From the IMG/VR virus record IMGVR_UViG_3300032335_000499: a stretch of DNA of 64,000 nt; one strand, given 5' to 3'. Positions within the stretch are counted from its first letter, which is position 1, and every line of letters starts with the position of its first letter. Positions 4,267-57,735 of the stretch are shown in pieces. The notes under the pieces were generated by a model. That model saw only the letters and a list, made by a program, of their open reading frames with translations. It had not been told where the DNA came from and searched no databases. The position numbers and the translations under genes were made by a program. The stretch is from a virus (Duplodnaviria; Heunggongvirae; Uroviricota; Caudoviricetes).

Positions 4267-5351
4267 GAATAGTTGAACTACTAAACGAATCACGGTTGCT
4301 TGAAGCAGATGCTAGAACTCCCCATCCTGAGGATTCAGTACTCAGCGGAGTGTCCTCTGCTCGTGATGCTGTTGATTCAATGTATCATGTAATTGATAAT
4401 CCAGAAACACTCACTATCAAGTGGGACGGTTTCCCAGCTCTTATCTTTGGATACAATGACAAAGGACAATTCACTGTATCAGACAAATATATGTTTGATA
4501 AAGGTACTGAGTACTTAGGAACAAGCCCTAAGTTTTGGCAAGAGTATGATGCTAGTAGAGGCAAGAGTCGCCCAGATTTGTACGGTAGACTCAATTCTAT
4601 TTGGAATGGATTGAAAGACGCGGTAGGCGCTAACAAAGGCTTCTTTTGGGGAGACTTGATGTGGGGCGAACAACTAAACCCGGTCGACGGCAAGTTCGTA
4701 TTCAAGCCCAATACTGTAACTTATGCAGTTCCTGTAAAGAGTGAGCTAGGTAATATCATTGCTGGAACCAGCGGAGGTGTTGCAGTTCATCAGTATTTTG
4801 CTGATATTAGTTCACCTCCCGTGCCATGGAACGGCAAAGGTCTACAGAGTAACAGTCAGGTTGCTATTCTCACTCCGAATATGGGCATTGATTTTGCATT
4901 AGAAGCTCCTAAGAATGAAGTTTCGAATGTCAATCAAGCACTTGCTAAGAATGGTAAACTGGATGACTTCTTGAATGGCATGGATGGTGTGGCAAGAAAC
5001 GCTCTAATGAAATACTTAGGACACACAGCAACTAGGCAAACTAACTTGCCACTAGAGCAATGGCTACAAAACAATGTCAGTGGTAAGCAATATCGATTCT
5101 TGGTCGGGGAAAACGACGGTTATCTTTTCCAAAACAAGGAAGCATTAGATAATCTTATTGAATTGTACTTTGCTATCGCCGAACTTAAAAATAGTCTTTC
5201 CGATCAACTTGAACAGCAGGTTAAAGGACTAGAACAATCAATCAATGATAGACCGGGCGGCGAAGGATTTGTCTTCAATACTCCTAAGGGACTAGTTAAG
5301 TTAGTCAATCGCGGCGGTTTTAGTGCTGCTCACTTTGGAAAGAAAAAGTAA
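4263..5351 (+). CDS. ATP-dependent ligase-like nucleotidyltransferase (DUF6267-like)
   Basis: TIKWDG (motif I KxDG), GEGFV (motif IV-like), LVKLV (motif V-like). Confidence 0.6.
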   Translation: MRIVELLNESRLLEADARTPHPEDSVLSGVSSARDAVDSMYHVIDNPETLTIKWDGFPALIFGYNDKGQFTVSDKYMFDKGTEYLGTSPKFWQEYDASRGKSRPDLYGRLNSIWNGLKDAVGANKGFFWGDLMWGEQLNPVDGKFVFKPNTVTYAVPVKSELGNIIAGTSGGVAVHQYFADISSPPVPWNGKGLQSNSQVAILTPNMGIDFALEAPKNEVSNVNQALAKNGKLDDFLNGMDGVARNALMKYLGHTATRQTNLPLEQWLQNNVSGKQYRFLVGENDGYLFQNKEALDNLIELYFAIAELKNSLSDQLEQQVKGLEQSINDRPGGEGFVFNTPKGLVKLVNRGGFSAAHFGKKK

Positions 5352-5379
5352 CCCAAAACCGAGTTTTTTTCTGTCCGGC

Positions 5380-5416
5380 ATAAATACTTATATGAGCTTC
5401 GGCTCACTTTTATAAG
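5380..5416 (+). promoter_or_regulatory. late promoter ATAAATA plus 5' C(UUCG)G hairpin
   Basis: ATAAATA 5380-5386; TGAGC-TTCG-GCTCA 5393-5406; outer CTTATA/TATAAG pairing overlaps the RBS. Confidence 0.7.
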
Positions 5417-5427
5417 GAAATAATACA

Positions 5428-5802
5428 ATGGCACAATTTACAAGAGTTAATGGTGACTTCCAGCAAGTTCTAAACTTAGACGCCGGTGCGTACACCAACG
5501 AAGGCAACACTTCAGCAATCGATTCGGCAGTAACTGTACAGCCTCAGGGTCCAAAGCTTGACTTCTTCACCATCACAGGTAACGGTTCACAGGTAGCTGA
5601 CAACATCAATGCAGTATTCCAAACTGTTCAGCAGCTTGCAACTGTATACATCTATGAGTATACTAACGCAACTGACGACACACTTGCAATCGCTGTATAC
5701 CCAGTCGCTGCATGGACAACTACTACACTTGACGCTGCACTCACAAATGCATGGACTTCAGCAAACGTAGCTGTAACTGCAACTGCAACTTTCACTAACT
5801 AA
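5428..5802 (+). CDS. probable abundant virion protein
   Basis: Own late promoter, AAGGA RBS, own terminator, strongly biased codon usage. Confidence 0.6.
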   Translation: MAQFTRVNGDFQQVLNLDAGAYTNEGNTSAIDSAVTVQPQGPKLDFFTITGNGSQVADNINAVFQTVQQLATVYIYEYTNATDDTLAIAVYPVAAWTTTTLDAALTNAWTSANVAVTATATFTN

Positions 5803-5827
5803 TAGTTAGTAAAACTACTACAACAAG

Positions 5828-5860
5828 AACCCGGGGGATTTTAAATTCTCCGGGTTTTTT
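5828..5860 (+). terminator. Rho-independent terminator
   Basis: AACCCGGGGGA...TTCTCCGGGTT stem followed by a T run. Confidence 0.8.
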
Positions 5861-5866
5861 ATTACT

Positions 5867-5873
5867 CTAAATA
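5867..5873 (+). promoter_or_regulatory. late promoter CTAAATA (leaderless)
   Basis: 5 nt upstream of ATG 5879, no RBS. Confidence 0.65.
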
Positions 5874-5878
5874 CGTGT

Positions 5879-6316
5879 ATGTATCGCATATGCTGTTATA
5901 CTTTATTTGATATCACAAAGACCGGTGTACACAACCGTTCTAAGCCGATAGATGATTCAGTTGATGATTGGCTAAAGCGAAGAAATACACAATGCAATTT
6001 TGATACTGTGCTACAGGTAATTTCTCTCAGGTCACAGCCTGAAGTAACTAAAATCCCTGTCATGTGTCAAATGGATATACAAGATTTTGATAAGTTTGGA
6101 TTCCTCTACAACACAGAAGAACCTTGCTACTATTGGAAATTCGAGTTTGAAATACAACACCCTAGTGTTTTTGAAAATGGTATTAAGCCATTAGGAGCAC
6201 TATATAACGATTGTGAGGGTGTACCGATGATTAGTATAGAAGGACAGCATTCGGCTTGTCCTAAATTTCTAAACGTTTCTGTAGAATTACAGAATATTTA
6301 TTTTGAGGTAGTATGA
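5879..6316 (+). CDS. hypothetical protein
   Basis: 145 aa ORF, CYTLFDIT...QCNFDTVLQVISLRSQP. Confidence 0.7.
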   Translation: MYRICCYTLFDITKTGVHNRSKPIDDSVDDWLKRRNTQCNFDTVLQVISLRSQPEVTKIPVMCQMDIQDFDKFGFLYNTEEPCYYWKFEFEIQHPSVFENGIKPLGALYNDCEGVPMISIEGQHSACPKFLNVSVELQNIYFEVV

Positions 6317-6798
6317 CTAACGCAATTAAATTAGCTAACTTTATCGATTCGGGTCTTGACTCCAATATCTCAGAGATATTGGTTACTAAAGAACATGCCG
6401 GTAGATATACCTTGTTCAATAAGTATTCAATTGTACTTAATAAGCGCGGATTCTATACTGTGTTTTCATCCAAAACGATGTCATTGAGTGAGTTTTCTAG
6501 TCTTAAGATTGCTATGTCATGGTGTGTATTTGATCATCTTGGTAAATACAGCGAAGGCCGTAGATTAGAGCATTTAGATTTAAAACTGTGTAGTATTGCG
6601 ATTGACATTGCGGTGCATAAAAAGAAAATCAAATCTTCAAATGATGTGGCTAGTAAGTTGATCTATACTATCAAGCTACAAGAGGACAATTTTTGTCGTA
6701 GACAAACCCTACAAGAAATCAAAAATTACATAAATAATTCTAGAGCATTGCAGGAACAAAAGTTTAGGGCAAAAGCTCCTAAAATTAATTACGTGTGA
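6313..6798 (+). CDS. hypothetical protein
   Basis: 161 aa, GAGG RBS, ATGA overlap with the previous gene. Confidence 0.7.
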   Translation: MTNAIKLANFIDSGLDSNISEILVTKEHAGRYTLFNKYSIVLNKRGFYTVFSSKTMSLSEFSSLKIAMSWCVFDHLGKYSEGRRLEHLDLKLCSIAIDIAVHKKKIKSSNDVASKLIYTIKLQEDNFCRRQTLQEIKNYINNSRALQEQKFRAKAPKINYV

Positions 6799-6804
6799 TA
6801 AATA
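6798..6804 (+). promoter_or_regulatory. late promoter ATAAATA
   Basis: Motif overlaps the stop of the upstream gene. Confidence 0.65.
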
Positions 6805-6832
6805 CTACACAATCAATATGGAAGAATAACCT

Positions 6833-7552
6833 ATGAAACTCACTGATTTAGATAAAAATAATGTTGCAGCAAAGGCTCTTAAAGAGAGCTTTGCAGTTGA
6901 CTTTGACATTTCAGGTCTAGACAGACCAAAGACTTTAACAATGTTAAAGAAAGTCAAGGGGCTTATCGCTGAAACTAGACAATCACCTAAGCAGCATCGT
7001 TCGGAAACTAACCCGACCTATATGAAGATGTTGTTCATGGAACAAGCACTGTCTGCTCATCTTAAGGTTGCTAAGACTCCTCGTATCGTTTTTGAAAACG
7101 AAGAAGTAGATAAGTCACAGGTAATTCTTGCTGCACAAGACATGATTGATTCTGTACAAAAAATGTATGAAGATGTTAATGATATGCTTGTCAAAGAACT
7201 TCCAGCACTGACTGATTCAATTCAGAGTGAAATCGGTGTTAATGAAAGTGATGCATTCAACACTGCTGCTACTGAGGCACTCAATACATTAAACACTGCA
7301 CTACAAGCAGCACAGACTGGTCTCAGAGGCGCTCTAGGCGGTCTAACAGGACAAGCTGGCGCTGGATTTGATCCAAGTGCAGAAATGCCAGTTGGAGGAG
7401 AAATGCCAGCCGGAGATGAAGAAGTAGACCTCAACGTAGATATTGATGCTGAAATGCCAGCAGAAGAACCTGGCGCAGAACTTCCTCCTATTCCAGATAT
7501 GGATGACGAAGAAGACCTCCCAACTGGCGGTGCAGGCCGAGCAAAGCGATAA
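6833..7552 (+). CDS. putative head/scaffold-type protein with acidic tail
   Basis: MKLTDL start, helical core, E/D/P-rich C-terminus. Confidence 0.45.
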   Translation: MKLTDLDKNNVAAKALKESFAVDFDISGLDRPKTLTMLKKVKGLIAETRQSPKQHRSETNPTYMKMLFMEQALSAHLKVAKTPRIVFENEEVDKSQVILAAQDMIDSVQKMYEDVNDMLVKELPALTDSIQSEIGVNESDAFNTAATEALNTLNTALQAAQTGLRGALGGLTGQAGAGFDPSAEMPVGGEMPAGDEEVDLNVDIDAEMPAEEPGAELPPIPDMDDEEDLPTGGAGRAKR

Positions 7553-7558
7553 CATATA

Positions 7559-7900
7559 ATGTTATTGCGTGAGTTTGATAGAGATCAGGATAGTGCGATG
7601 GTTAGCCAAATCGTCGCACTAACCAATCAACTCCAGCAAGATGTTGACTCCGGTGAAGTAGATGCTGATAACTATACTGTTGACCAGCTTTTAGATTATT
7701 TTCAACAATATGACGTTATACTAGACGTTAATGACTTGTACAACATGGTACGAGTTCCTCCCTTAAAAGGTATTATTACTAATATTCAGGGTGATAAGGT
7801 AGTCTTTAAAGGCCATCAAGAGGACACTGCTGACAAGCCAGAGGGCGGAGACAGTGAAAAAACTGTTCAGCAAATGGCTAAACGAGCAATGAAAACTTAA
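7559..7900 (+). CDS. hypothetical protein (CTS-like N-terminus)
   Basis: MLLREF start; 113 aa. Confidence 0.6.
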   Translation: MLLREFDRDQDSAMVSQIVALTNQLQQDVDSGEVDADNYTVDQLLDYFQQYDVILDVNDLYNMVRVPPLKGIITNIQGDKVVFKGHQEDTADKPEGGDSEKTVQQMAKRAMKT

Positions 7901-7909
7901 CCATAATAG

Positions 7910-7939
7910 TTGCATTTTTGCAACAATGTGCTATATTAT
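7910..7939 (+). promoter_or_regulatory. sigma70-type promoter
   Basis: TTGCAT-N18-TATTAT, 7 nt before ATG 7947. Confidence 0.5.
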
Positions 7940-7946
7940 AGCTTCA

Positions 7947-8708
7947 ATGAAAAAAGAAATAACAATATCTCATTTAGTTGTTAACGGATGCAGCTTTACA
8001 TACTGTGAAGGATTGGAAAATCCCTCAACCCAAGGATGGCCTACTTTATTAGCAAAAAAGCTAAATGTTCCGGTAGTAAATCTAGCTATGGGCGGAACCG
8101 GAAATCATAGAATATATCGTAAAACCGTAGATTATTTCTTTAAAGATACCGAAAGCAATCCTTTTTATTTAATAGGCATGACTTCATGCACACGAATGGA
8201 ACAGTATAGTAGGCATATATCAGATTATGTTGCTATTAATATAGTGGGTAAACATTACACTCAGTTGTGGGAAAATCAGTTCGTAAGGTTAATGCAGAAG
8301 GGCAATGATCCTCTAATATTAGCAAAAGCTAAACTAGATATTTGGCTATCTATCATCAACTTATTCAAATCAACCGACACTAATTATCTTATGACTGACA
8401 TGCTGGTAAACGGACCTGAAGTTGACGATGAACTTAGTGAGATGTACCCAAAATTATTCGACTACACAATCAATGACCCTAACCATGCCAAAGATTATGT
8501 AAAACACACGAGTAACTTAGGTAAGCTTCCGTGCAACCATTATGATGCTGAGGCTCAAATTAAAATATCCGAGTACTTGTATCAGGAACTAACAGCCAGG
8601 TATATTGTTAATCCAGTAAGCACTGACTATCTAAAACTCAAAGATTTTTACACTGAATCGGAAACTAACTACATTAGTACCCGAAAAAAAGGAGACTGGA
8701 TAATATAA
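7947..8708 (+). CDS. SGNH/GDSL-hydrolase-like protein
   Basis: NGCSFTY (block I), NLAMGGTGN (block II), late CNHY; start moved to ATG 7947 by promoter position. Confidence 0.6.
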   Translation: MKKEITISHLVVNGCSFTYCEGLENPSTQGWPTLLAKKLNVPVVNLAMGGTGNHRIYRKTVDYFFKDTESNPFYLIGMTSCTRMEQYSRHISDYVAINIVGKHYTQLWENQFVRLMQKGNDPLILAKAKLDIWLSIINLFKSTDTNYLMTDMLVNGPEVDDELSEMYPKLFDYTINDPNHAKDYVKHTSNLGKLPCNHYDAEAQIKISEYLYQELTARYIVNPVSTDYLKLKDFYTESETNYISTRKKGDWII

Positions 8709-43298: not shown

Positions 43299-43541
43299 AT
43301 GGAGCACCCATTCTTAAACAAAGCAGACTTGAAAGAAATGTCAACGGAACAACTACAAGAACAAATGACAAGTCTTAATAACAAGTTGACATTTGCATAT
43401 CGTATGGGCAACGGTCCTCTTATCCATCAATTGCAGATGGTATTAGAAACTTACCGTAATCAATTCACTAGCAAGATGGATGAGTTATTTGAAAAACAAA
43501 ACATCAAAAGTCAAATCAACATTGAATCTGATAAAAAATGA
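43299..43541 (+). CDS. hypothetical helical protein
   Basis: 80 aa. Confidence 0.65.
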   Translation: MEHPFLNKADLKEMSTEQLQEQMTSLNNKLTFAYRMGNGPLIHQLQMVLETYRNQFTSKMDELFEKQNIKSQINIESDKK

Positions 43542-44098
43542 TAACTAGGATTGAGAAAGATTTCTTTTTTCTTGCAGGGGTGCATTTTGATGATGCATAC
43601 TTCATCAACTCCTACGACTTGACGGCATCATTTTTGGTAGAGTCTGACTGCCCCAAAGAACATCACATTGCAATGAGCAGACTTGAGCATTTTATCAAGG
43701 ATATAATGTCTAACGTAGTCTTCGTTCATCAGGATGAGGTTGACGCAATCGAACGCTACGAAGCAGCCGGAATTCAAGTATGTGAGCTTCCAGAGATTCC
43801 ATTAGATCAAGTAGTAGCTATTGTATTGTTGCTAAAAATGAATGCGATTATGGAAGGCAGAATGAAGATAACGGATGTCACCGTAGGTTCTCTATTGGGC
43901 GAAGGTGTGCGGTATCCTATAGTATCTGAACTTGCAGAGAGTGCAGATATGGTGGCAGGCAATCATTGGTGGCACAAACCAGATAAGAACGTGTCTGATA
44001 AGAACATCGAATTCAATACTGATAATGTTGTTAAGCTGTTTTTCGATGATGATTGGGTAGATATGGGACTATCCTGGAAAGATAAAACTAACATTTAA
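43538..44098 (+). CDS. hypothetical protein
   Basis: 186 aa, ATGA overlap. Confidence 0.7.
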   Translation: MITRIEKDFFFLAGVHFDDAYFINSYDLTASFLVESDCPKEHHIAMSRLEHFIKDIMSNVVFVHQDEVDAIERYEAAGIQVCELPEIPLDQVVAIVLLLKMNAIMEGRMKITDVTVGSLLGEGVRYPIVSELAESADMVAGNHWWHKPDKNVSDKNIEFNTDNVVKLFFDDDWVDMGLSWKDKTNI

Positions 44099-44099
44099 C

Positions 44100-44128
44100 T
44101 TGACATTCTTTAAATTTAATGTCATAAT
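44100..44128 (+). promoter_or_regulatory. sigma70 promoter (leaderless) containing an inverted repeat
   Basis: TTGACA-N17-CATAAT, ATG 6 nt downstream; TGACATT...AATGTCA dyad. Confidence 0.75.
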
Positions 44129-44134
44129 GCTATT

Positions 44135-44644
44135 ATGATAATCGACACATACGGTCAGCAAATCTATAGCGAACAGGACTTGATTGACATTTATATGTCT
44201 AATCCTGAAAAAAGCTTCACCGCGCCTATCCTAGTCTCAGAAAATATTGTGTTTAATAGCAATTTAGATTTGGATAATGTTCCGAATTTAATTATGTATG
44301 CTGTGAGTGACGATTCTATTGAGCAATTCGATCAGCAGTGTCGTGATAATTGGTTCTTCCCGCAAGAATATAAGAACTTTGACATTGCAAAGTACGTACT
44401 AGACCAATGTCAAAATGAAGAAGAACTACAACGTGCAGGCAAAGAACTATTACTATACCAAGAACGTGACATGTTCGTACTATTACAGTATTTAAAGTAT
44501 CTAGTTGATACTATGCGAAACAATAACATTGTTTGGGGAGTAGGAAGGGGATCTAGTGTCGCAAGTTTCGTGTTATACTTGATAGGTGTACACAAGATTA
44601 ACTCTCTTTATTACGACCTCCCTATCGAAGAATTTTTAAAGTAA
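44135..44644 (+). CDS. DNA polymerase III alpha (DnaE)-like fragment
   Basis: R..KEL...YLVD.MR.NNIVWGVGRGSSVASFVLYLIGVHKINSL.YDL...EFLK matches the DnaE GPGRGS region. Confidence 0.8.
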   Translation: MIIDTYGQQIYSEQDLIDIYMSNPEKSFTAPILVSENIVFNSNLDLDNVPNLIMYAVSDDSIEQFDQQCRDNWFFPQEYKNFDIAKYVLDQCQNEEELQRAGKELLLYQERDMFVLLQYLKYLVDTMRNNNIVWGVGRGSSVASFVLYLIGVHKINSLYYDLPIEEFLK

Positions 44645-45532: not shown

Positions 45533-45561
45533 TTGACATTTTTATCAACCTATACTATACT
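45533..45561 (+). promoter_or_regulatory. sigma70 promoter (leaderless)
   Basis: TTGACA-N17-TATACT, ATG 5 nt downstream. Confidence 0.75.
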
Positions 45562-50695: not shown

Positions 50696-50757
50696 TTGAC
50701 AATCGACACCCAGAGTGCTATAGTGTAACAATGGATCATTATAACACTCTGGGTGTC
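50696..50757 (+). promoter_or_regulatory. sigma70 promoter (leaderless) overlapped by a 21 bp inverted repeat
   Basis: TTGACA 50696-50701, TATAGT 50719-50724; 50705-50725 pairs with 50737-50757. Confidence 0.8.
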
Positions 50758-53800: not shown

Positions 53801-54461
53801 AACAGTAGATCGCCCTAACTTATTTTTTAATAAGTTTGTGTATAGGATTAATGTTACAGGTGTACCCAGTGTTCATCGGATAAACAAATGTGCCAACATA
53901 TACGACTATATTGGTTATATTGATAAACTGTATGAAGATTGGGAGTCATCTAACCAAAGATATCCAAATGGATGGTATAGGACACCTCCGAGTTCATCCG
54001 ATATAGACTTAATTAGAGTCGAAAATCTTATTGGATTAATGCAGAAGTATAATGACAAATCCCTAATTACATACAGGAGTGAAAACAGTACCGTAAGTGT
54101 CTATACTTCTGACTTAGTTTTAGCTAAGGAGTTTGCAGATACTTTGTCAGTAGGATTATTAACTCAAGTTAATCCTATGCCAACTGGGGTAATGCTTTTT
54201 AAGCGAGAGCCTCCTGCAAAATATCGTGCATATACAACTAATAACAAGATGCCATCAGACTTTAAAGAAAGTTTTGTTGCTTATCTAGAAAGAACTCCGG
54301 ACGTTAAACCCAGTAGTTCATTTAGTAATTATTTTGCTAGACGTTATAATTTTCTATGGGAGAAGTATTATGTTGATTATGATGATGAGAAGAATCTAAT
54401 GATGATGATGCTAATGTTTCCGGGCATGATAGGAAAGATGTACAAACTAGAAAAGAAGTGA
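53769..54461 (+). CDS. hypothetical protein
   Basis: 230 aa ORF; exact start uncertain. Confidence 0.65.
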   Translation: MMMALSKLVIKTVDRPNLFFNKFVYRINVTGVPSVHRINKCANIYDYIGYIDKLYEDWESSNQRYPNGWYRTPPSSSDIDLIRVENLIGLMQKYNDKSLITYRSENSTVSVYTSDLVLAKEFADTLSVGLLTQVNPMPTGVMLFKREPPAKYRAYTTNNKMPSDFKESFVAYLERTPDVKPSSSFSNYFARRYNFLWEKYYVDYDDEKNLMMMMLMFPGMIGKMYKLEKK

Positions 54462-54488
54462 TAAATACTCTATATATTTTGGAGTATT
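54461..54488 (+). promoter_or_regulatory. late promoter within an RBS-occluding hairpin
   Basis: ATAAATA 54461-54467; AATACTCTA pairs with TGGAGTATT covering GGAG. Confidence 0.7.
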
Positions 54489-54491
54489 AAT

Positions 54492-54656
54492 ATGGCTAAA
54501 ATGATCGAAGAAGTCATCGTTATCAAGTTGTCAAAGCTTGTAAAAGATAGTGACTCAACCGATACTATTGCTGATAATGAAGTATGTTCAGCACTAGAAC
54601 AAGTAGCACAAGAACTTGCCGGTAACGGGGTCTTAGTAGAGGTCGAGAGAGCTTAA
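54492..54656 (+). CDS. small protein (54 aa, not in ORF track)
   Basis: MAKMIEEVIVIKLSKLVKD...ALEQVAQELAGNGVLVEVERA; GGAG RBS; TAATG overlap with next gene. Confidence 0.75.
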   Translation: MAKMIEEVIVIKLSKLVKDSDSTDTIADNEVCSALEQVAQELAGNGVLVEVERA

Positions 54657-55042
54657 TGTCTCAGGTCACTACTCTGATCCTATTGCCACAAACGGCTTAC
54701 CTAAATCCAGGCAACGGTGCACCTTACACTGTGACTGGTAACACTGAACCAGCTGCTGCATATATTATAGGTAACCAAGTCTTACAAACTGTAAACTATG
54801 GTTTATCGAATTGCACTGGTAACATCGTGATTGAAGCGACATTAGCTTCATCACCAACTGACACTGACTGGTTCAGAGTTTATGAATTAGAAGCGAATGC
54901 AAACGCGGCTTCTAATAGTGCTCCTAAGATTGCAAGCAATGCAAGAGCATACACCAATATCGACGGAAACTTTGTCTATGTTAGAGCAAAGATAGAAGAC
55001 TTCCAAGGCGGTATTGTAAATTACGTTAAAATATCATATTAA
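54656..55042 (+). CDS. beta-rich probable virion protein
   Basis: IVIEATL...DWF...GNFVYVRA. Confidence 0.6.
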   Translation: MSQVTTLILLPQTAYLNPGNGAPYTVTGNTEPAAAYIIGNQVLQTVNYGLSNCTGNIVIEATLASSPTDTDWFRVYELEANANAASNSAPKIASNARAYTNIDGNFVYVRAKIEDFQGGIVNYVKISY

Positions 55043-55055
55043 AGAAAGAGATAAA

Positions 55056-55241
55056 ATGGAAACAACAATTAATATTAAGGCTCAATTTGAAGCCTTCCTC
55101 GCAGAAAACGAAAAGTTCAACAGTGGCAATGCTGCTGCCGGTACTCGTGCCCGTAAGGCACTTGGTGAACTTGCAAAGTTGTGCAAGGCTCGTCGTAACG
55201 AAATCACTGCTGAAAAGACTGCACGTAAAGAAGCGAAGTAA
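55056..55241 (+). CDS. histone H1-like Hc1-family small protein
   Basis: EKFNSGNAAAGTRARKAL.ELAKL.KARR.EI. Confidence 0.7.
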   Translation: METTINIKAQFEAFLAENEKFNSGNAAAGTRARKALGELAKLCKARRNEITAEKTARKEAK

Positions 55242-55245
55242 TTAA

Positions 55246-56766
55246 ATGAAAGTGGTAGCTATATATCCAGGCAGATTTCATCCTTTTCACAAAGGACATG
55301 CAAGCAGCTTTAAGCAGCTAGCAGAAAAGTTTGGTTTGGATAACACATTCTTAGCTATCTCTGCAAAACAAGAACAACCTAAAAGCCCATTCTCAGCACA
55401 AGATCGTGCTAAGATGGCGGTGTCTTTAGGTATACCTAGTAAGAATATCATTGCTGTGCGTAATCCATACGCGGCTCAGGAATATATTGATCAACTGAAC
55501 CTTGATCCCGAAAAAACAGCATTGATATTTGGTGTAAGTAAGAAGGACATGGAAGGTGACCCTGCACTGGGTATTCCTCCTGATCCCAGATTTGGATTTA
55601 AACCCAAGAAAGACGGGAGTCTTTCTTACTTACAACCTTTTAATAAGAATAAAGTTGACCCTATGTCACAGCATGGTTATATCATGTCAACTGAGGTAGC
55701 AGAATTTCCTATTGCCGGTAAATCTATGCGTGATGCTAGTGCTATACGTAGTGCATATGCAGGCGCAGATGAAAAAACAAAAATGAAAATTCTAACAGAT
55801 TTATACGGGGATGCAGCAGAAAAAATGAAACAAGTATTTGACAACAACTTACAAATTACAGAAAGCATCCGTAGACTTATTGCTATGATTAAGCCTATGC
55901 TTAGTGAAGCAACATTTGAACAGAAGTCTAAGTTTGTCAAGTTACTCAGTGAAGCTAAGAAATCAATGCTTAATGAGGCGATCGGCAATGTTGTAGATCG
56001 TTCATATGACATGACAGATGTTGATGATCGCATTGATTCCGATCAGCGTTTGAAAAAAATATCCAAGCAAATGCTAGAAAAATTAACTTCCAGAGAAGAA
56101 TTCGTAGTGCGCTCTAGATTAGGTCTATCCGGTGAAGAACCAAAGTCACTAAAACAGATTGCTGATACTTTGGGAATTGGACAAGAAAGAGTTAGACAGA
56201 TAGAAGCTAAAGCGGTTTATAAGTTACGTCAAGCTAATGATTTCAAAAATAGACCAATAGATGCAGCCGACAGTAAGATTTTTGCACAACTTGAAGAAGT
56301 AGAACCACTATACAAGGATGCACTAGATAAATATCGACAATATTGGGATAAACATCGCTTTTATCCTACTCCAGAAACAGAAGAAATCAGAAAAAAATTG
56401 TATGCTGAATACAAAAAGTATAGCGATATAAGATCCAAACTACATGATCAATTAACAGTACCTTCATCGTTAACATTAAAAGAAGATGCTACTAACATCT
56501 ATACCAGAAGAATGGCAAATCTAACTAACGATTTAGGTAATGGCTACTTCTTAGGTGATGATAGTTACGATGACGATGACGGATTCAGTAAAGCAGGATA
56601 TTCAGTATATTATCAAGAAGGTGCTGATCAGTATCGCTTAGTTGGTAATGTATCAATGAGTCCTTATAGCAATCCTCCTGGACATATTGAAAGCGAAATC
56701 AAAAAGATTATTGCTTCTGACCAAAATAATCTATCCGAAAGTACGGATTATTTAGAAGAAAAATAA
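55246..56766 (+). CDS. HIGH-type nucleotidyltransferase fused to sigma70 region 4 and further modules
   Basis: YPGRFHPFHKGH and DASAIR; LTSREEFVVRSRLGL...SLKQIADTLGIGQERVRQIEAKAVYKLR. Confidence 0.8.
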   Translation: MKVVAIYPGRFHPFHKGHASSFKQLAEKFGLDNTFLAISAKQEQPKSPFSAQDRAKMAVSLGIPSKNIIAVRNPYAAQEYIDQLNLDPEKTALIFGVSKKDMEGDPALGIPPDPRFGFKPKKDGSLSYLQPFNKNKVDPMSQHGYIMSTEVAEFPIAGKSMRDASAIRSAYAGADEKTKMKILTDLYGDAAEKMKQVFDNNLQITESIRRLIAMIKPMLSEATFEQKSKFVKLLSEAKKSMLNEAIGNVVDRSYDMTDVDDRIDSDQRLKKISKQMLEKLTSREEFVVRSRLGLSGEEPKSLKQIADTLGIGQERVRQIEAKAVYKLRQANDFKNRPIDAADSKIFAQLEEVEPLYKDALDKYRQYWDKHRFYPTPETEEIRKKLYAEYKKYSDIRSKLHDQLTVPSSLTLKEDATNIYTRRMANLTNDLGNGYFLGDDSYDDDDGFSKAGYSVYYQEGADQYRLVGNVSMSPYSNPPGHIESEIKKIIASDQNNLSESTDYLEEK

Positions 56767-56823: not shown

Positions 56824-57735
56824 ATGGCACGTAAACCAAAGACTACTAAGAATACAATCGCTCCAAACGGGGAAGAAAGAAACATTCCCGTTGAAAAGCT
56901 AGAAGAAATTGCCGAACAGGCTGCACAGGAGCAAGCTCCACAAGAAGGTCAAGTTCAAGTTAACGTTGACTTCCTCCGCACAACTAAGGTTCATATCGCA
57001 ATGCCTTGCTACGGCGGTATGTTGACAGAATCAACTTTCATGTCATTCATCAAGTGGGCAAACACTGCCCGTCAGCTTGGTATTGACTGGACCCTAGAAA
57101 CAATGGTTAATGAATCACTCATTAGCCGCGCACGTAATACACTTACTGCAAAATTCCTTGACATGCCTGACGCAACACACTTGTTCTTCGTTGACGCTGA
57201 TATCGGTTGGGAACCGTGGCACTTGCTCGTTCTCTTGAACCGTGACGTTGACGTTATCGGTGGTTTGTATCCGATGAAGACTATGCCTATCAAGTGGGTT
57301 GTTAACGGATTCGAAGGCGCAGAAGAAGGCGCTGATGGTCTTCAGGAAGTATCAAAGGCTGGTACTGGCTTCTTGCTCATGAAGAAGCATGTATTCGAGA
57401 AGATGAATTCACACCCTGCTGTTAAGCAGTACAAGAATGATATCGGTCTTGATCCAAAGTATGACCAGCACTTGAAGACATACTTCGACACTGCTGTTCG
57501 TCAGAATCGCTACTACAGTGAAGACTGGACGTTCTGTGAAAACTGGAGAGATATCGGTGGTCGCATTTGGGTTGATAAGCGAGTTCTTCTCCGTCACTCA
57601 GGATCATATGTATTCTGCATGGAAAATCAGCAGCATCTATTAGACACTGTTGGCCCAATGTATGTGCAGGCACAGGCAGAAAAGGCAGCACAAGAAGCTG
57701 CTGCGGCCGCTGCACCACAAGTTCCCCCCGCCTAA
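56824..57735 (+). CDS. GT-A fold glycosyltransferase-like protein
   Basis: IAMPCY, SLISRARN, FVDADI (DxD), GTGFLL, SEDWTFC. Confidence 0.75.
   Translation: MARKPKTTKNTIAPNGEERNIPVEKLEEIAEQAAQEQAPQEGQVQVNVDFLRTTKVHIAMPCYGGMLTESTFMSFIKWANTARQLGIDWTLETMVNESLISRARNTLTAKFLDMPDATHLFFVDADIGWEPWHLLVLLNRDVDVIGGLYPMKTMPIKWVVNGFEGAEEGADGLQEVSKAGTGFLLMKKHVFEKMNSHPAVKQYKNDIGLDPKYDQHLKTYFDTAVRQNRYYSEDWTFCENWRDIGGRIWVDKRVLLRHSGSYVFCMENQQHLLDTVGPMYVQAQAEKAAQEAAAAAAPQVPPA

Follow-up and report, generated by a model that had tools for sequence, protein, structure and literature searches.

The subject of this analysis is a phage gene in which a sigma70 region 4 lies inside the coding sequence of a nucleotidyltransferase. 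The gene was found in a 64,000-nucleotide stretch of DNA (here called the window) from the IMG/VR virus record IMGVR_UViG_3300032335_000499 (Caudoviricetes). It consists of a single open reading frame (ORF) of 506 amino acids (aa) at 55246-56766 on the plus strand, and the segment 56071-56232, where an earlier note had placed the sigma region, encodes its residues 276-329. Read in frame on the plus strand, this segment gives a methionine followed by the peptide quoted in that note, with zero stops; the strand opposite is closed by many stop codons.

An AlphaFold model of the 506-aa protein, built on a 42-sequence family alignment, has a mean predicted local distance difference test (pLDDT) score of 66. 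In this model, a Rossmann-type domain (residues 1-175) is followed by long helices (176-247), and a beta domain with one helix occupies residues 426-494; the low-confidence stretches are 237-272, 406-426, and 496-506 (the tail). The features of the locus, including a promoter-like motif upstream, are as follows.

54461-54468, plus strand: ATAAATAC, a late-promoter-like motif 24 nucleotides 5′ of the first operon gene
55246-56766, plus strand: the whole ORF, comprising nucleotidyltransferase, sigma module, beta domain, and tail (translation, Pfam)
55246-55965, plus strand: conserved N-domain (aa 1-240), a Rossmann fold with HIGH signature plus long helices (PF01467, motifs, fold)
55966-55977, plus strand: junction 1, MLNE (aa 241-244), which opens cassette site 1 (end of a helix, entering the low-confidence stretch 237-272)
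55978-56037, plus strand: acidic leader of the module (aa 245-264), alignable to the linker between regions 3.2 and 4.1 in cellular sigma factors (pLDDT below 50)
56038-56235, plus strand: sigma domain 4 (aa 265-330), regions 4.1 and 4.2 including the helix-turn-helix (four helices; Pfam match at 56074-56232)
56263-56454, plus strand: antiparallel helical hairpin (aa 340-403; pLDDT of about 90)
56473-56484, plus strand: junction 2, TLKE (aa 410-413), which closes cassette site 1 (in the disordered stretch 406-426)
56485-56727, plus strand: conserved C-domain (aa 414-494), a small beta sheet and a helix (family alignment, AlphaFold model)
56728-56739, plus strand: junction 3, NLSE (aa 495-498), the place of cassette site 2 in relatives (extra modules there)
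56740-56763, plus strand: C-terminal tail ending DYLEEK (D, Y, L, and E invariant in the tail alignment)

The module is thus set between MLNE and TLKE linkers, just where the earlier note had put it, and is 169 aa long (residues 245-413). A whole-model Foldseek search gave zero matches at an E value of ≤0.001, because the model is multidomain; the structural matches given here were taken from domain-level comparisons. Relatives were collected by a word-indexed search (1212 relatives among 8000 candidates scored), and a domain census was taken over 120 listed clusters at 90% identity. Thirteen of the 120 (ENA, JGI, NCBI, Logan) have both the nucleotidyltransferase and the sigma Pfam domains, which rules out an assembly artifact as the source of the fusion.

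The Pfam family Sigma70_r4 (PF04545) matches residues 277-329 with 47.9 bits (E value of 9.2e-13; gathering score, 24.1), and the 54-aa piece on its own scores 52.3 bits. In the same Pfam scan of the 506-aa protein, neither Sigma70_r2 (PF04542) nor Sigma70_r3 gave a match at an E value of ≤1. Both parts of the original observation, that a region 4 is present and that a region 2 is not, were therefore upheld, and the match to region 4 is well outside what chance would give. The NCBIfam models RpoD, RpoS, RpoH, SigC, and MzaA align solely to residues ca. 243 to 331, and they do so via their C-terminal ends (positions 156-228 of the 238 in RpoD_Cterm align with aa 258-331). By sequence, the closest solved structure is domain 4 of Staphylococcus aureus sigma-A (4g6d; E value of 8e-10), followed by primary sigma factors from many phyla. 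The modeled helices (265-278, 282-292, 302-309, and 313-330) form a sigma domain 4 fold with a C-terminal helix-turn-helix, and they superpose on sigma-A region 4 with a root mean square deviation of 1.3-2.0 Å over 57-62 residues at 40-44% identity; VIA-align gave Z scores of 9-10 against SigD4, DNA-bound sigma-E region 4 (-35 DNA), and Taq sigma-A. Taken together, profile and model comparisons establish the module as a complete sigma-70-family domain 4 of the primary-sigma type, without region 2 or 3. When four full-length cellular sigma factors were compared, homology began at the acidic linker between regions 3.2 and 4.1 and ran through 4.1 and 4.2, and in the 463- to 464-aa alleles (P0009 and P0016) it reached the sigma C-terminal tail, ending as cellular sigma factors do. 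For this reason, the module has the appearance of a primary-sigma gene's 3′ end. By these comparisons the protein is a real member of the Sigma70_r4 family and, since region 2 is absent, not a sigma factor.

The recognition helix was compared with that of Escherichia coli sigma-70, in which we take R584, E585, R586, R588, and Q589 to be the -35 contacts. On this numbering, the Glu, Arg, Arg, and Gln equivalent to E585, R586, R588, and Q589 are kept in the present copy, and most aligned embedded copies retain the E-R-x-R-Q helix. At the position of R584, the present protein has Gln, and Arg is found in none of the nucleotidyltransferase-embedded copies. Searched against cellular genomes for a donor or host, the module peaked at 48-55% identity over 53-64 residues, in scattered phyla. 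The helical hairpin that follows it (residues 340-403) gave only generic coiled-coil matches and no specific structural relative in the structure search; it is confined to one group of alleles (P0002, P0003, and P0122) and is lacking in the 463- to 464-aa sigma-4 forms.

The carrier itself is apparently an active nucleotidyltransferase of the HIGH-signature class, as judged from its motifs and modeled fold. That the region 4 sits in a nucleotidyltransferase had been stated at the outset, and CTP_transf_like (PF01467) indeed matches residues 6-97 with 45.9 bits (gathering score, 21). An HxGH motif lies at aa 12-18 and an ASAIR motif (ISxxxxR type) at aa 164-168, and H12, H15, G17, H18, I167, and R168 are invariant in the family alignment. 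A minimal 340-aa relative was modeled separately (pLDDT of 77.5), and the fold of its N-domain matched the NaMN/NMN (nicotinic acid/nicotinamide mononucleotide) adenylyltransferases NadD, NadM, and archaeal NMNAT, as well as PPAT, with Z scores of 10-10.7; PPAT scored equal to the NMN/NaMN adenylyltransferases in this comparison. NadR was also among the fold matches (8x7f, Z score of 8.8; 6gye, Z score of 8.0). Sequence matches of the scaffold were weak: archaeal NMNAT (1f9a) was found at an E value of 9e-4, and among GenBank phages there were N-terminal, motif-level matches to NatV-type NMNAT genes at E values of ca. 0.01-0.04 (KVP40 NatV, 0.04). The C-domain (aa 414-494) is restricted to the family, with only 26 representatives in an exhaustive HMMER search. 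One metagenomic protein of 1824 aa (P0148) contains seven matches to the central beta-hairpin segment (residues 32-71) of the C-domain; because of these repeated matches, the C-domain may derive from, or may have spawned, a repeat protein of this kind.

Across the family, the layout is N-domain, cassette site 1, C-domain, cassette site 2, and DYLEEK tail. The tail stays at the extreme C terminus in proteins of 253-802 aa, whatever modules come before it, and is disordered in the models of both the 506-aa protein and the 340-aa relative; we considered DYLEEK as a general tag and rejected this, as no other ORF in the window has such an end. The N-domain is 84-95% identical across the metagenomic members compared, with the exception of a mosaic (P0122). 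Site 1 is empty in the common 340-aa form and otherwise holds sigma 4 with or without the hairpin, an HD module of ca. 185 aa, a Cys-rich (Zn-ribbon-like) piece, or another module of ca. 95 aa. The HD module (locus L001) matches RelA/SpoT-type (p)ppGpp/(p)ppApp hydrolases (7qps, E value of 5e-9; 7smg; small alarmone hydrolases; Mesh1). Some relatives hold extra modules between junction 3 and the tail, and the 802-aa member (P0013) has the Cys-rich piece, the HD module, and sigma 4 consecutively, plus a module at site 2; two or more unrelated effector-type domains per chain, in variable combinations, are thus seen in the family. The suggestion that homologous nucleotidyltransferases might carry different modules at this position was in this way borne out, and the alignments and census show sigma 4 to be one cassette among several that can replace each other at a fixed site, with a conserved nucleotidyltransferase on one side and a beta domain on the other. 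No embedded peptidase or MuF-type domain was found by Pfam in this protein or in ten relatives, a search that divergent versions could escape. A recent insertion might have left direct repeats on either side of the module, but the repeats seen were limited to short ones within coding sequence, of the LSEA/LNEA motif.

The sigma-4 cassette does not follow its carrier. Carriers that share 84-95% identity in their N-domains share only 41-52% in their sigma-4 cores, and in the mosaic relative the relationship to the present protein is turned around (N-domain, 32%; sigma 4, 79%; C-domain, 75%). Because sigma-4 identity is decoupled from N-domain identity in both directions, the cassette is, on these alignments, swapped between lineages, evolving much faster than its carrier, or both. 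Such rapid turnover indicates the behavior typical of parts that interact with the host. Nevertheless, all sigma-4 copies are still recognized by the Sigma70_r4 profile, two of them with 40-48 bits when rescanned.

Region 4 also occurs outside the nucleotidyltransferase in related phages. A profile derived from the module was searched against 1.48 Mb of fetched loci. In one syntenic relative (G003; L084 1405-1917, minus strand, of IMG/VR contig 3300032562_000003), a 170-aa ORF with Sigma70_r4 as its only domain lies ca. 1.5 kb from a gp23-type capsid gene, and the nucleotidyltransferase of the same phage is without the cassette. At another locus (L055 16071-16934, plus strand), a 288-aa ORF has Sigma70_r4_2/r4 at residues 113-166 and no region 2, ca. 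6 kb 3′ of the nucleotidyltransferase of that locus. No Sigma70_r4 was found in two relatives that are 92-100% complete (G001 and G002). In the study of Iyer et al. 2021 (PMC7824862), group 2 jumbo phages are described as having minimal sigma factors with a single helix-turn-helix and gp33 orthologues, and also HIGH-type NMNATs and HD alarmone phosphodiesterases as separate proteins. The novelty of the present case lies in a domain 4 of the primary-sigma type that is embedded in an enzyme as a swappable cassette. At its N terminus, the 170-aa protein has a short leader that closes with Ile-Asn-Glu and calls T4 capsid-targeting sequences to mind.

Every module boundary in the family ends in hydrophobic-x-Glu (MLNE 241-244, TLKE 410-413, and NLSE 495-498 in the present protein). 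With a density of 0.022 such motifs per residue in the 506-aa protein, their occurrence within ±3 residues of 3/3 boundaries here has a P value of ca. 0.003, and of 6/6 boundaries in the 802-aa relative a P value of ca. 1e-5, in a test that was post hoc and made on related sequences. Position P3 is L, I, or V in 45/45 unique 7-mers at junction 1, hydrophobic (L, I, V, M, or F) in 63/66 at junction 2, and V, L, I, or M in 66/66 at junction 3. Over all junctions it is hydrophobic in 174/177, with P2 and P1′ variable; since the 7-mers were anchored on Glu, P3 is the sole informative position. E413 is present in at least 90% of the sequences in both family alignments, regardless of which module precedes it, and the junctions sit inside or at the border of low-confidence linkers in both AlphaFold models. 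This pattern has the look of a short linear motif under selection.

T4 gp21 and its relatives in giant phages cleave after a Glu that follows a short motif (PMC9026906), and the [LIV]-x-Glu at the junctions, a motif known here from sequence, fits the reported specificity of T4-type prohead proteases. A gp21-type protease (Peptidase_S77; 89-97 bits) is encoded by the syntenic relatives G001 to G003, and by synteny we infer that one is present in this very phage as well. The syntenic relatives also encode a Gp23 capsid protein (E value of 1e-98), and its propeptide region has a Leu-Ala-Glu/Ser site where, we presume, T4 would have one. As for packaging, T4 Alt is a packaged RNA-polymerase-modifying enzyme that is processed at both ends (PMC9026906), and a putative cytidylyltransferase was found by mass spectrometry in virions of the T4-like cyanophage S-SM1 (PMC3037559); by analogy, the latter offers a lead toward packaging of this class of enzyme. 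From such circumstantial evidence, we weakly infer that modules may be released by cleavage and packaged in the head. Elsewhere in the window, short leaders of 5-11 residues ending in hydrophobic-x-Glu and resembling T4 capsid-targeting sequences occur at the ORF starts 57833, 58750, 63248, 2039, 30749, 49622, and 50167 (plus strand).

The nucleotidyltransferase gene is the last of four tightly packed genes (54492-56766) and is predicted to lie in a late-type operon. On the plus strand, ATAAATAY has 13 matches, 10 of them 12-80 nucleotides 5′ of an ORF start, and the ORFs behind it include sheath, tube-region, and fiber genes. Its overall count (14, versus 9.3 expected) is not above chance, so that the case for late promoters rests on the position of the motif. 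ATAAATAY resembles the T4 late promoter TATAAATA; the canonical form TATAAATA was rejected as the motif in use (1 match, versus 5.5 expected). Late promoters of the T4 type lack the -35 element that a region 4 would read. Sites of the TTGACA early-promoter kind that the earlier note had ascribed to this phage also exist: there are 8 perfect TTGACA-N16-18-TANNNT sites, versus 3.1 expected, all on the plus strand (19352, 22084, 45533-45561, 50696-50724, and four more), and several, including perfect ones of the TTGACA-N17-TATAGT type, have a TATAGT or TATACT -10 element just 5′ of an ORF. These suggest strong host-type early promoters. Because TTGACA-type sites exceed expectation and late-type motifs also precede ORFs, the phage appears to depend on -35 recognition of the host sigma-70 type for some genes and on -35-independent promoters for others. 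Mixed promoter use of this kind is a setting in which a mimic of region 4 could shift the balance.

Of the roles we have weighed, the one that we favor, with a confidence that approaches an even chance without reaching it, is that of an accessory mimic of sigma region 4 that would act on host RNA polymerase and/or -35 sites, its neighboring modules perhaps being separated by a protease. In this reading, which rests on sequence and analogy, the cassettes of the family would be accessory effectors of host takeover, and the sigma-4 cassette would mimic region 4 of the host sigma factor. The mimic would sit on the tip of the beta flap of host RNA polymerase and/or on TTGACA-type -35 DNA, or it would titrate proteins that bind region 4. 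Transcription that depends on a -35 element, whether from host or early phage promoters, would be lowered, favoring the -35-independent late promoters of the phage. A weaker step of the proposal is that a gp21-type prohead protease would separate the modules at the [LIV]-x-Glu junctions; such separation would imply packaging in the head and delivery with the DNA, as for T4 Alt. The role of decoy or competitor that had been suggested for the module from the first is plausible.

Several observations count against this proposal. On its own, region 4 has a far lower affinity for core polymerase than whole sigma, and simple competition would for that reason need a high copy number or tethering. The change at the R584 equivalent, being common to all embedded copies, may weaken or alter -35 binding. 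With only 13 of the 120 listed clusters carrying sigma 4, the cassette is by this count dispensable. As regards cleavage, the conserved N-domain contains four further hydrophobic-x-Glu motifs, of which three fall within helical residues 200-236, and on account of this recurrence the motif may in part reflect a helical composition rich in Glu and Leu. As regards packaging, the protein opens directly on a Rossmann beta strand, with no N-terminal capsid-targeting leader of the T4 kind (its first hydrophobic-x-Glu ends at residue 27, inside the fold), and no protease or capsid (head) gene occurs in the 64-kb window. We also considered synteny with the cyanophage cytidylyltransferase, which was rejected: the cyanophage homologue of o303, the ORF 3′ of the nucleotidyltransferase gene, has no such neighbor.

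A rather unlikely alternative, and the one that best survives comparison with the data, is that the protein stays uncleaved and bifunctional, the sigma-4 helix-turn-helix acting in cis. It might tether the nucleotidyltransferase to the beta flap or to -35-like DNA, or the protein might be an autoregulator similar to NadR or BirA; NadR is itself a regulator in which a helix-turn-helix is joined to an NMNAT. Such a protein would be encoded by one continuous ORF, would lack a targeting leader at its N terminus, and would keep its catalytic motifs invariant, all of which is the case here. The conservation of the fusion in the 13 clusters and an N-domain fold nearest to NMN/NaMN adenylyltransferases, with NadR among the matches, likewise speak for it. 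However, near-identical scaffolds hold a self-sufficient alarmone hydrolase or nothing at all, which is a better fit to independent cargo, and the module is joined by long disordered linkers with conserved motifs of the protease type. Sigma 4 also evolves much faster than the enzyme that it would supposedly guide.

An unlikely extension of the mimic proposal is that the capsid is loaded with host-takeover modules, cut apart on a nucleotidyltransferase scaffold, and that these include a host-like region 4 which enters the cell with the DNA. Were this so, the copy of region 4 would reprogram polymerase at the interface of flap and -35 element before any phage gene is expressed, and the two cassette sites flanked by protease motifs would constitute a natural plug-in system for the exchange of effectors between phages.

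It is quite improbable that the module is a positive transcription factor of the phage, that is, a minimal sigma or gp33-like coactivator that sits on the beta flap together with a sigma-2-like partner of the gp55 type. The minimal sigma factors and gp33 orthologues of group 2 jumbo phages (PMC7824862), the stand-alone 170-aa sigma-4 ORF in the head-gene cluster of one relative, and the T4-like late type of the promoters would be in keeping with such a role. Nevertheless, it cannot be a core transcription factor, because the two nearly complete relatives are without Sigma70_r4 and most members of the family are without the cassette, and late promoters of the T4 type would offer it no -35 element; no gene for a partner has emerged from the analysis either.

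Still harder to sustain, and in our estimation very improbable, is that the module serves as a decoy, not acting on polymerase or DNA but drawing off host binders of region 4 (anti-sigma factors of the Rsd type, activators, or a sigma-containing defense similar to MZA). MzaA of the MZA antiphage system gave the best NCBIfam E value (1.4e-13), but it was near-tied with RpoD, is no better a match than RpoD, RpoS, or SigC, and covers generic region 4 only. The DNA contact equivalent to R584 has been lost in all embedded copies, and the fast turnover of the sequence resembles an arms race; against this, the remainder of the recognition helix is conserved in most copies. Barely credible is that the module has no function and is a remnant: the 3′ part of a sigma gene would have been captured, and the enzyme would put up with it in a permissive loop. 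The site does tolerate many unrelated inserts or none, and a donor lineage is not identifiable among the scattered cellular matches, but copies at ca. 50% identity keep an open frame, the Pfam score, the hydrophobic core, and the recognition helix, which points to purifying selection on the fold.

How a region 4 mimic would compare with known systems depends on whether its action or its architecture is considered. Phage factors that work at the interface of region 4 and the beta flap include T4 AsiA and gp33, gp39 of a Thermus phage, and P7 of Xp10. The sigma-4 cassette would work most like these factors, and in its construction the protein comes closest to a small polyvalent or packaged effector; it has only some of the features that define interface factors, polyvalent proteins, and packaged effectors. 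With AsiA, gp39, and P7 it would share its expected target, the region 4/beta-flap/-35 interface that controls the switch from early to late transcription, but those proteins bind region 4 or the flap via unrelated folds, whereas this one copies region 4. To T4 gp33, the resemblance is functional only. Like the minimal sigma factors and gp33 of T4-related jumbo phages (PMC7824862), the module is a region-4-type helix-turn-helix without region 2, and docking on the beta flap would be expected; unlike the minimal sigma factors, it is an internal cassette of an enzyme, is of the primary-sigma type (40-44% identical to sigma-A region 4), and is accessory, not universal.

Among packaged effectors, T4 Alt and the internal proteins are similar in being late-made effectors against host transcription in a T4-related phage, with Glu-ending sites of the gp21 type at their ends. 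The present protein differs from them in lacking a capsid-targeting leader, in being a HIGH nucleotidyltransferase and not an ADP-ribosyltransferase, in having several modules per chain, and in being known from sequence. Polyvalent proteins also combine variable, unrelated effector domains in one chain, alarmone-related ones included (Iyer et al. 2017, PMC5512222), and the proposal for them is that they accompany the DNA into the host and undergo processing into separate units. The protein described here is much smaller, with a fixed enzyme scaffold and defined insertion sites. Sigma domains are unmentioned in that study, and the nucleotidyltransferases found in it by term search are of the Pol-beta type only (PMC5512222).

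Two comparisons bear on the enzyme. The virion cytidylyltransferase of cyanophages (T4-GC190; Sullivan et al. 2010, PMC3037559) is likewise a phage nucleotidyltransferase of the HIGH type, and the scaffold model matches cyanophage “cytitidyltransferases” by fold, but the two share only 13-16% identity and no synteny. Like NadR, the protein unites a DNA-binding helix-turn-helix with an NMNAT-like HIGH nucleotidyltransferase; unlike NadR, it has another type of helix-turn-helix and another domain order, has no kinase domain, and has a helix-turn-helix that is optional and replaceable.

If the mimic reading holds, the use of a copy of region 4 by a phage would be a different route to the control point that AsiA, gp33, gp39, and P7 hit, and it would stand, as an exchangeable insert, beside alternatives such as an alarmone hydrolase in the same family of enzymes. 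The family is abundant in metagenomes and amounts to a natural allelic series, in which the same scaffold occurs with or without the cassette. Should a protease in fact cut at the [LIV]-x-Glu junctions, the sequence would suffice to identify cargo and its boundaries in uncultured T4-related jumbo phages.

The wider gene content, as established by sequence comparison, makes the carrier phage a member of an uncultured clade of T4-related (group 2-like) jumbo myophages. The window encodes a contractile tail sheath and tube, DnaJ-like and ClpB-like chaperones, and a replicative helicase, and the sheath is ca. 44% identical to those of PA5oct, Atu_ph07, and SCTP-2; no near relative was found among GenBank phages by DNA or protein. 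IMG/VR contigs of 258-360 kb are syntenic with it (DnaJ, ClpB, o230, o54, o128, in some cases Hc1, the nucleotidyltransferase, o303, o305, o142, and o1354), and the ClpB proteins of these relatives are 81-85% identical. ORFs at 43538-44644 (plus strand) fit the split minimal Pol III alpha of group 2.2 jumbo phages (Iyer et al. 2021, PMC7824862).

Directly 5′ of the nucleotidyltransferase gene, in the same operon, a 61-aa ORF (55056-55241, plus strand) matches the chlamydial histone H1-like family Hc1 (PF07432) with 53 bits (cutoff, 23.5), and its product may be a DNA-condensing protein of the phage. On the 3′ side, o303 (phrog_1574; 56824-57735, plus strand) is 86-94% identical across close relatives, which exceeds the identity of ClpB, and has homologues in T4-like cyanophages, in rhizobiophages of the phiM12 type, and in a Pelagibacter phage. 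Finally, at one related locus (L012 4690-8548), the ClpB-like gene is in two ORFs (4690-6156 and 7340-8548), split by a 360-aa ORF on the opposite strand (6131-7213) that could represent an inserted mobile element, a homing endonuclease for example.

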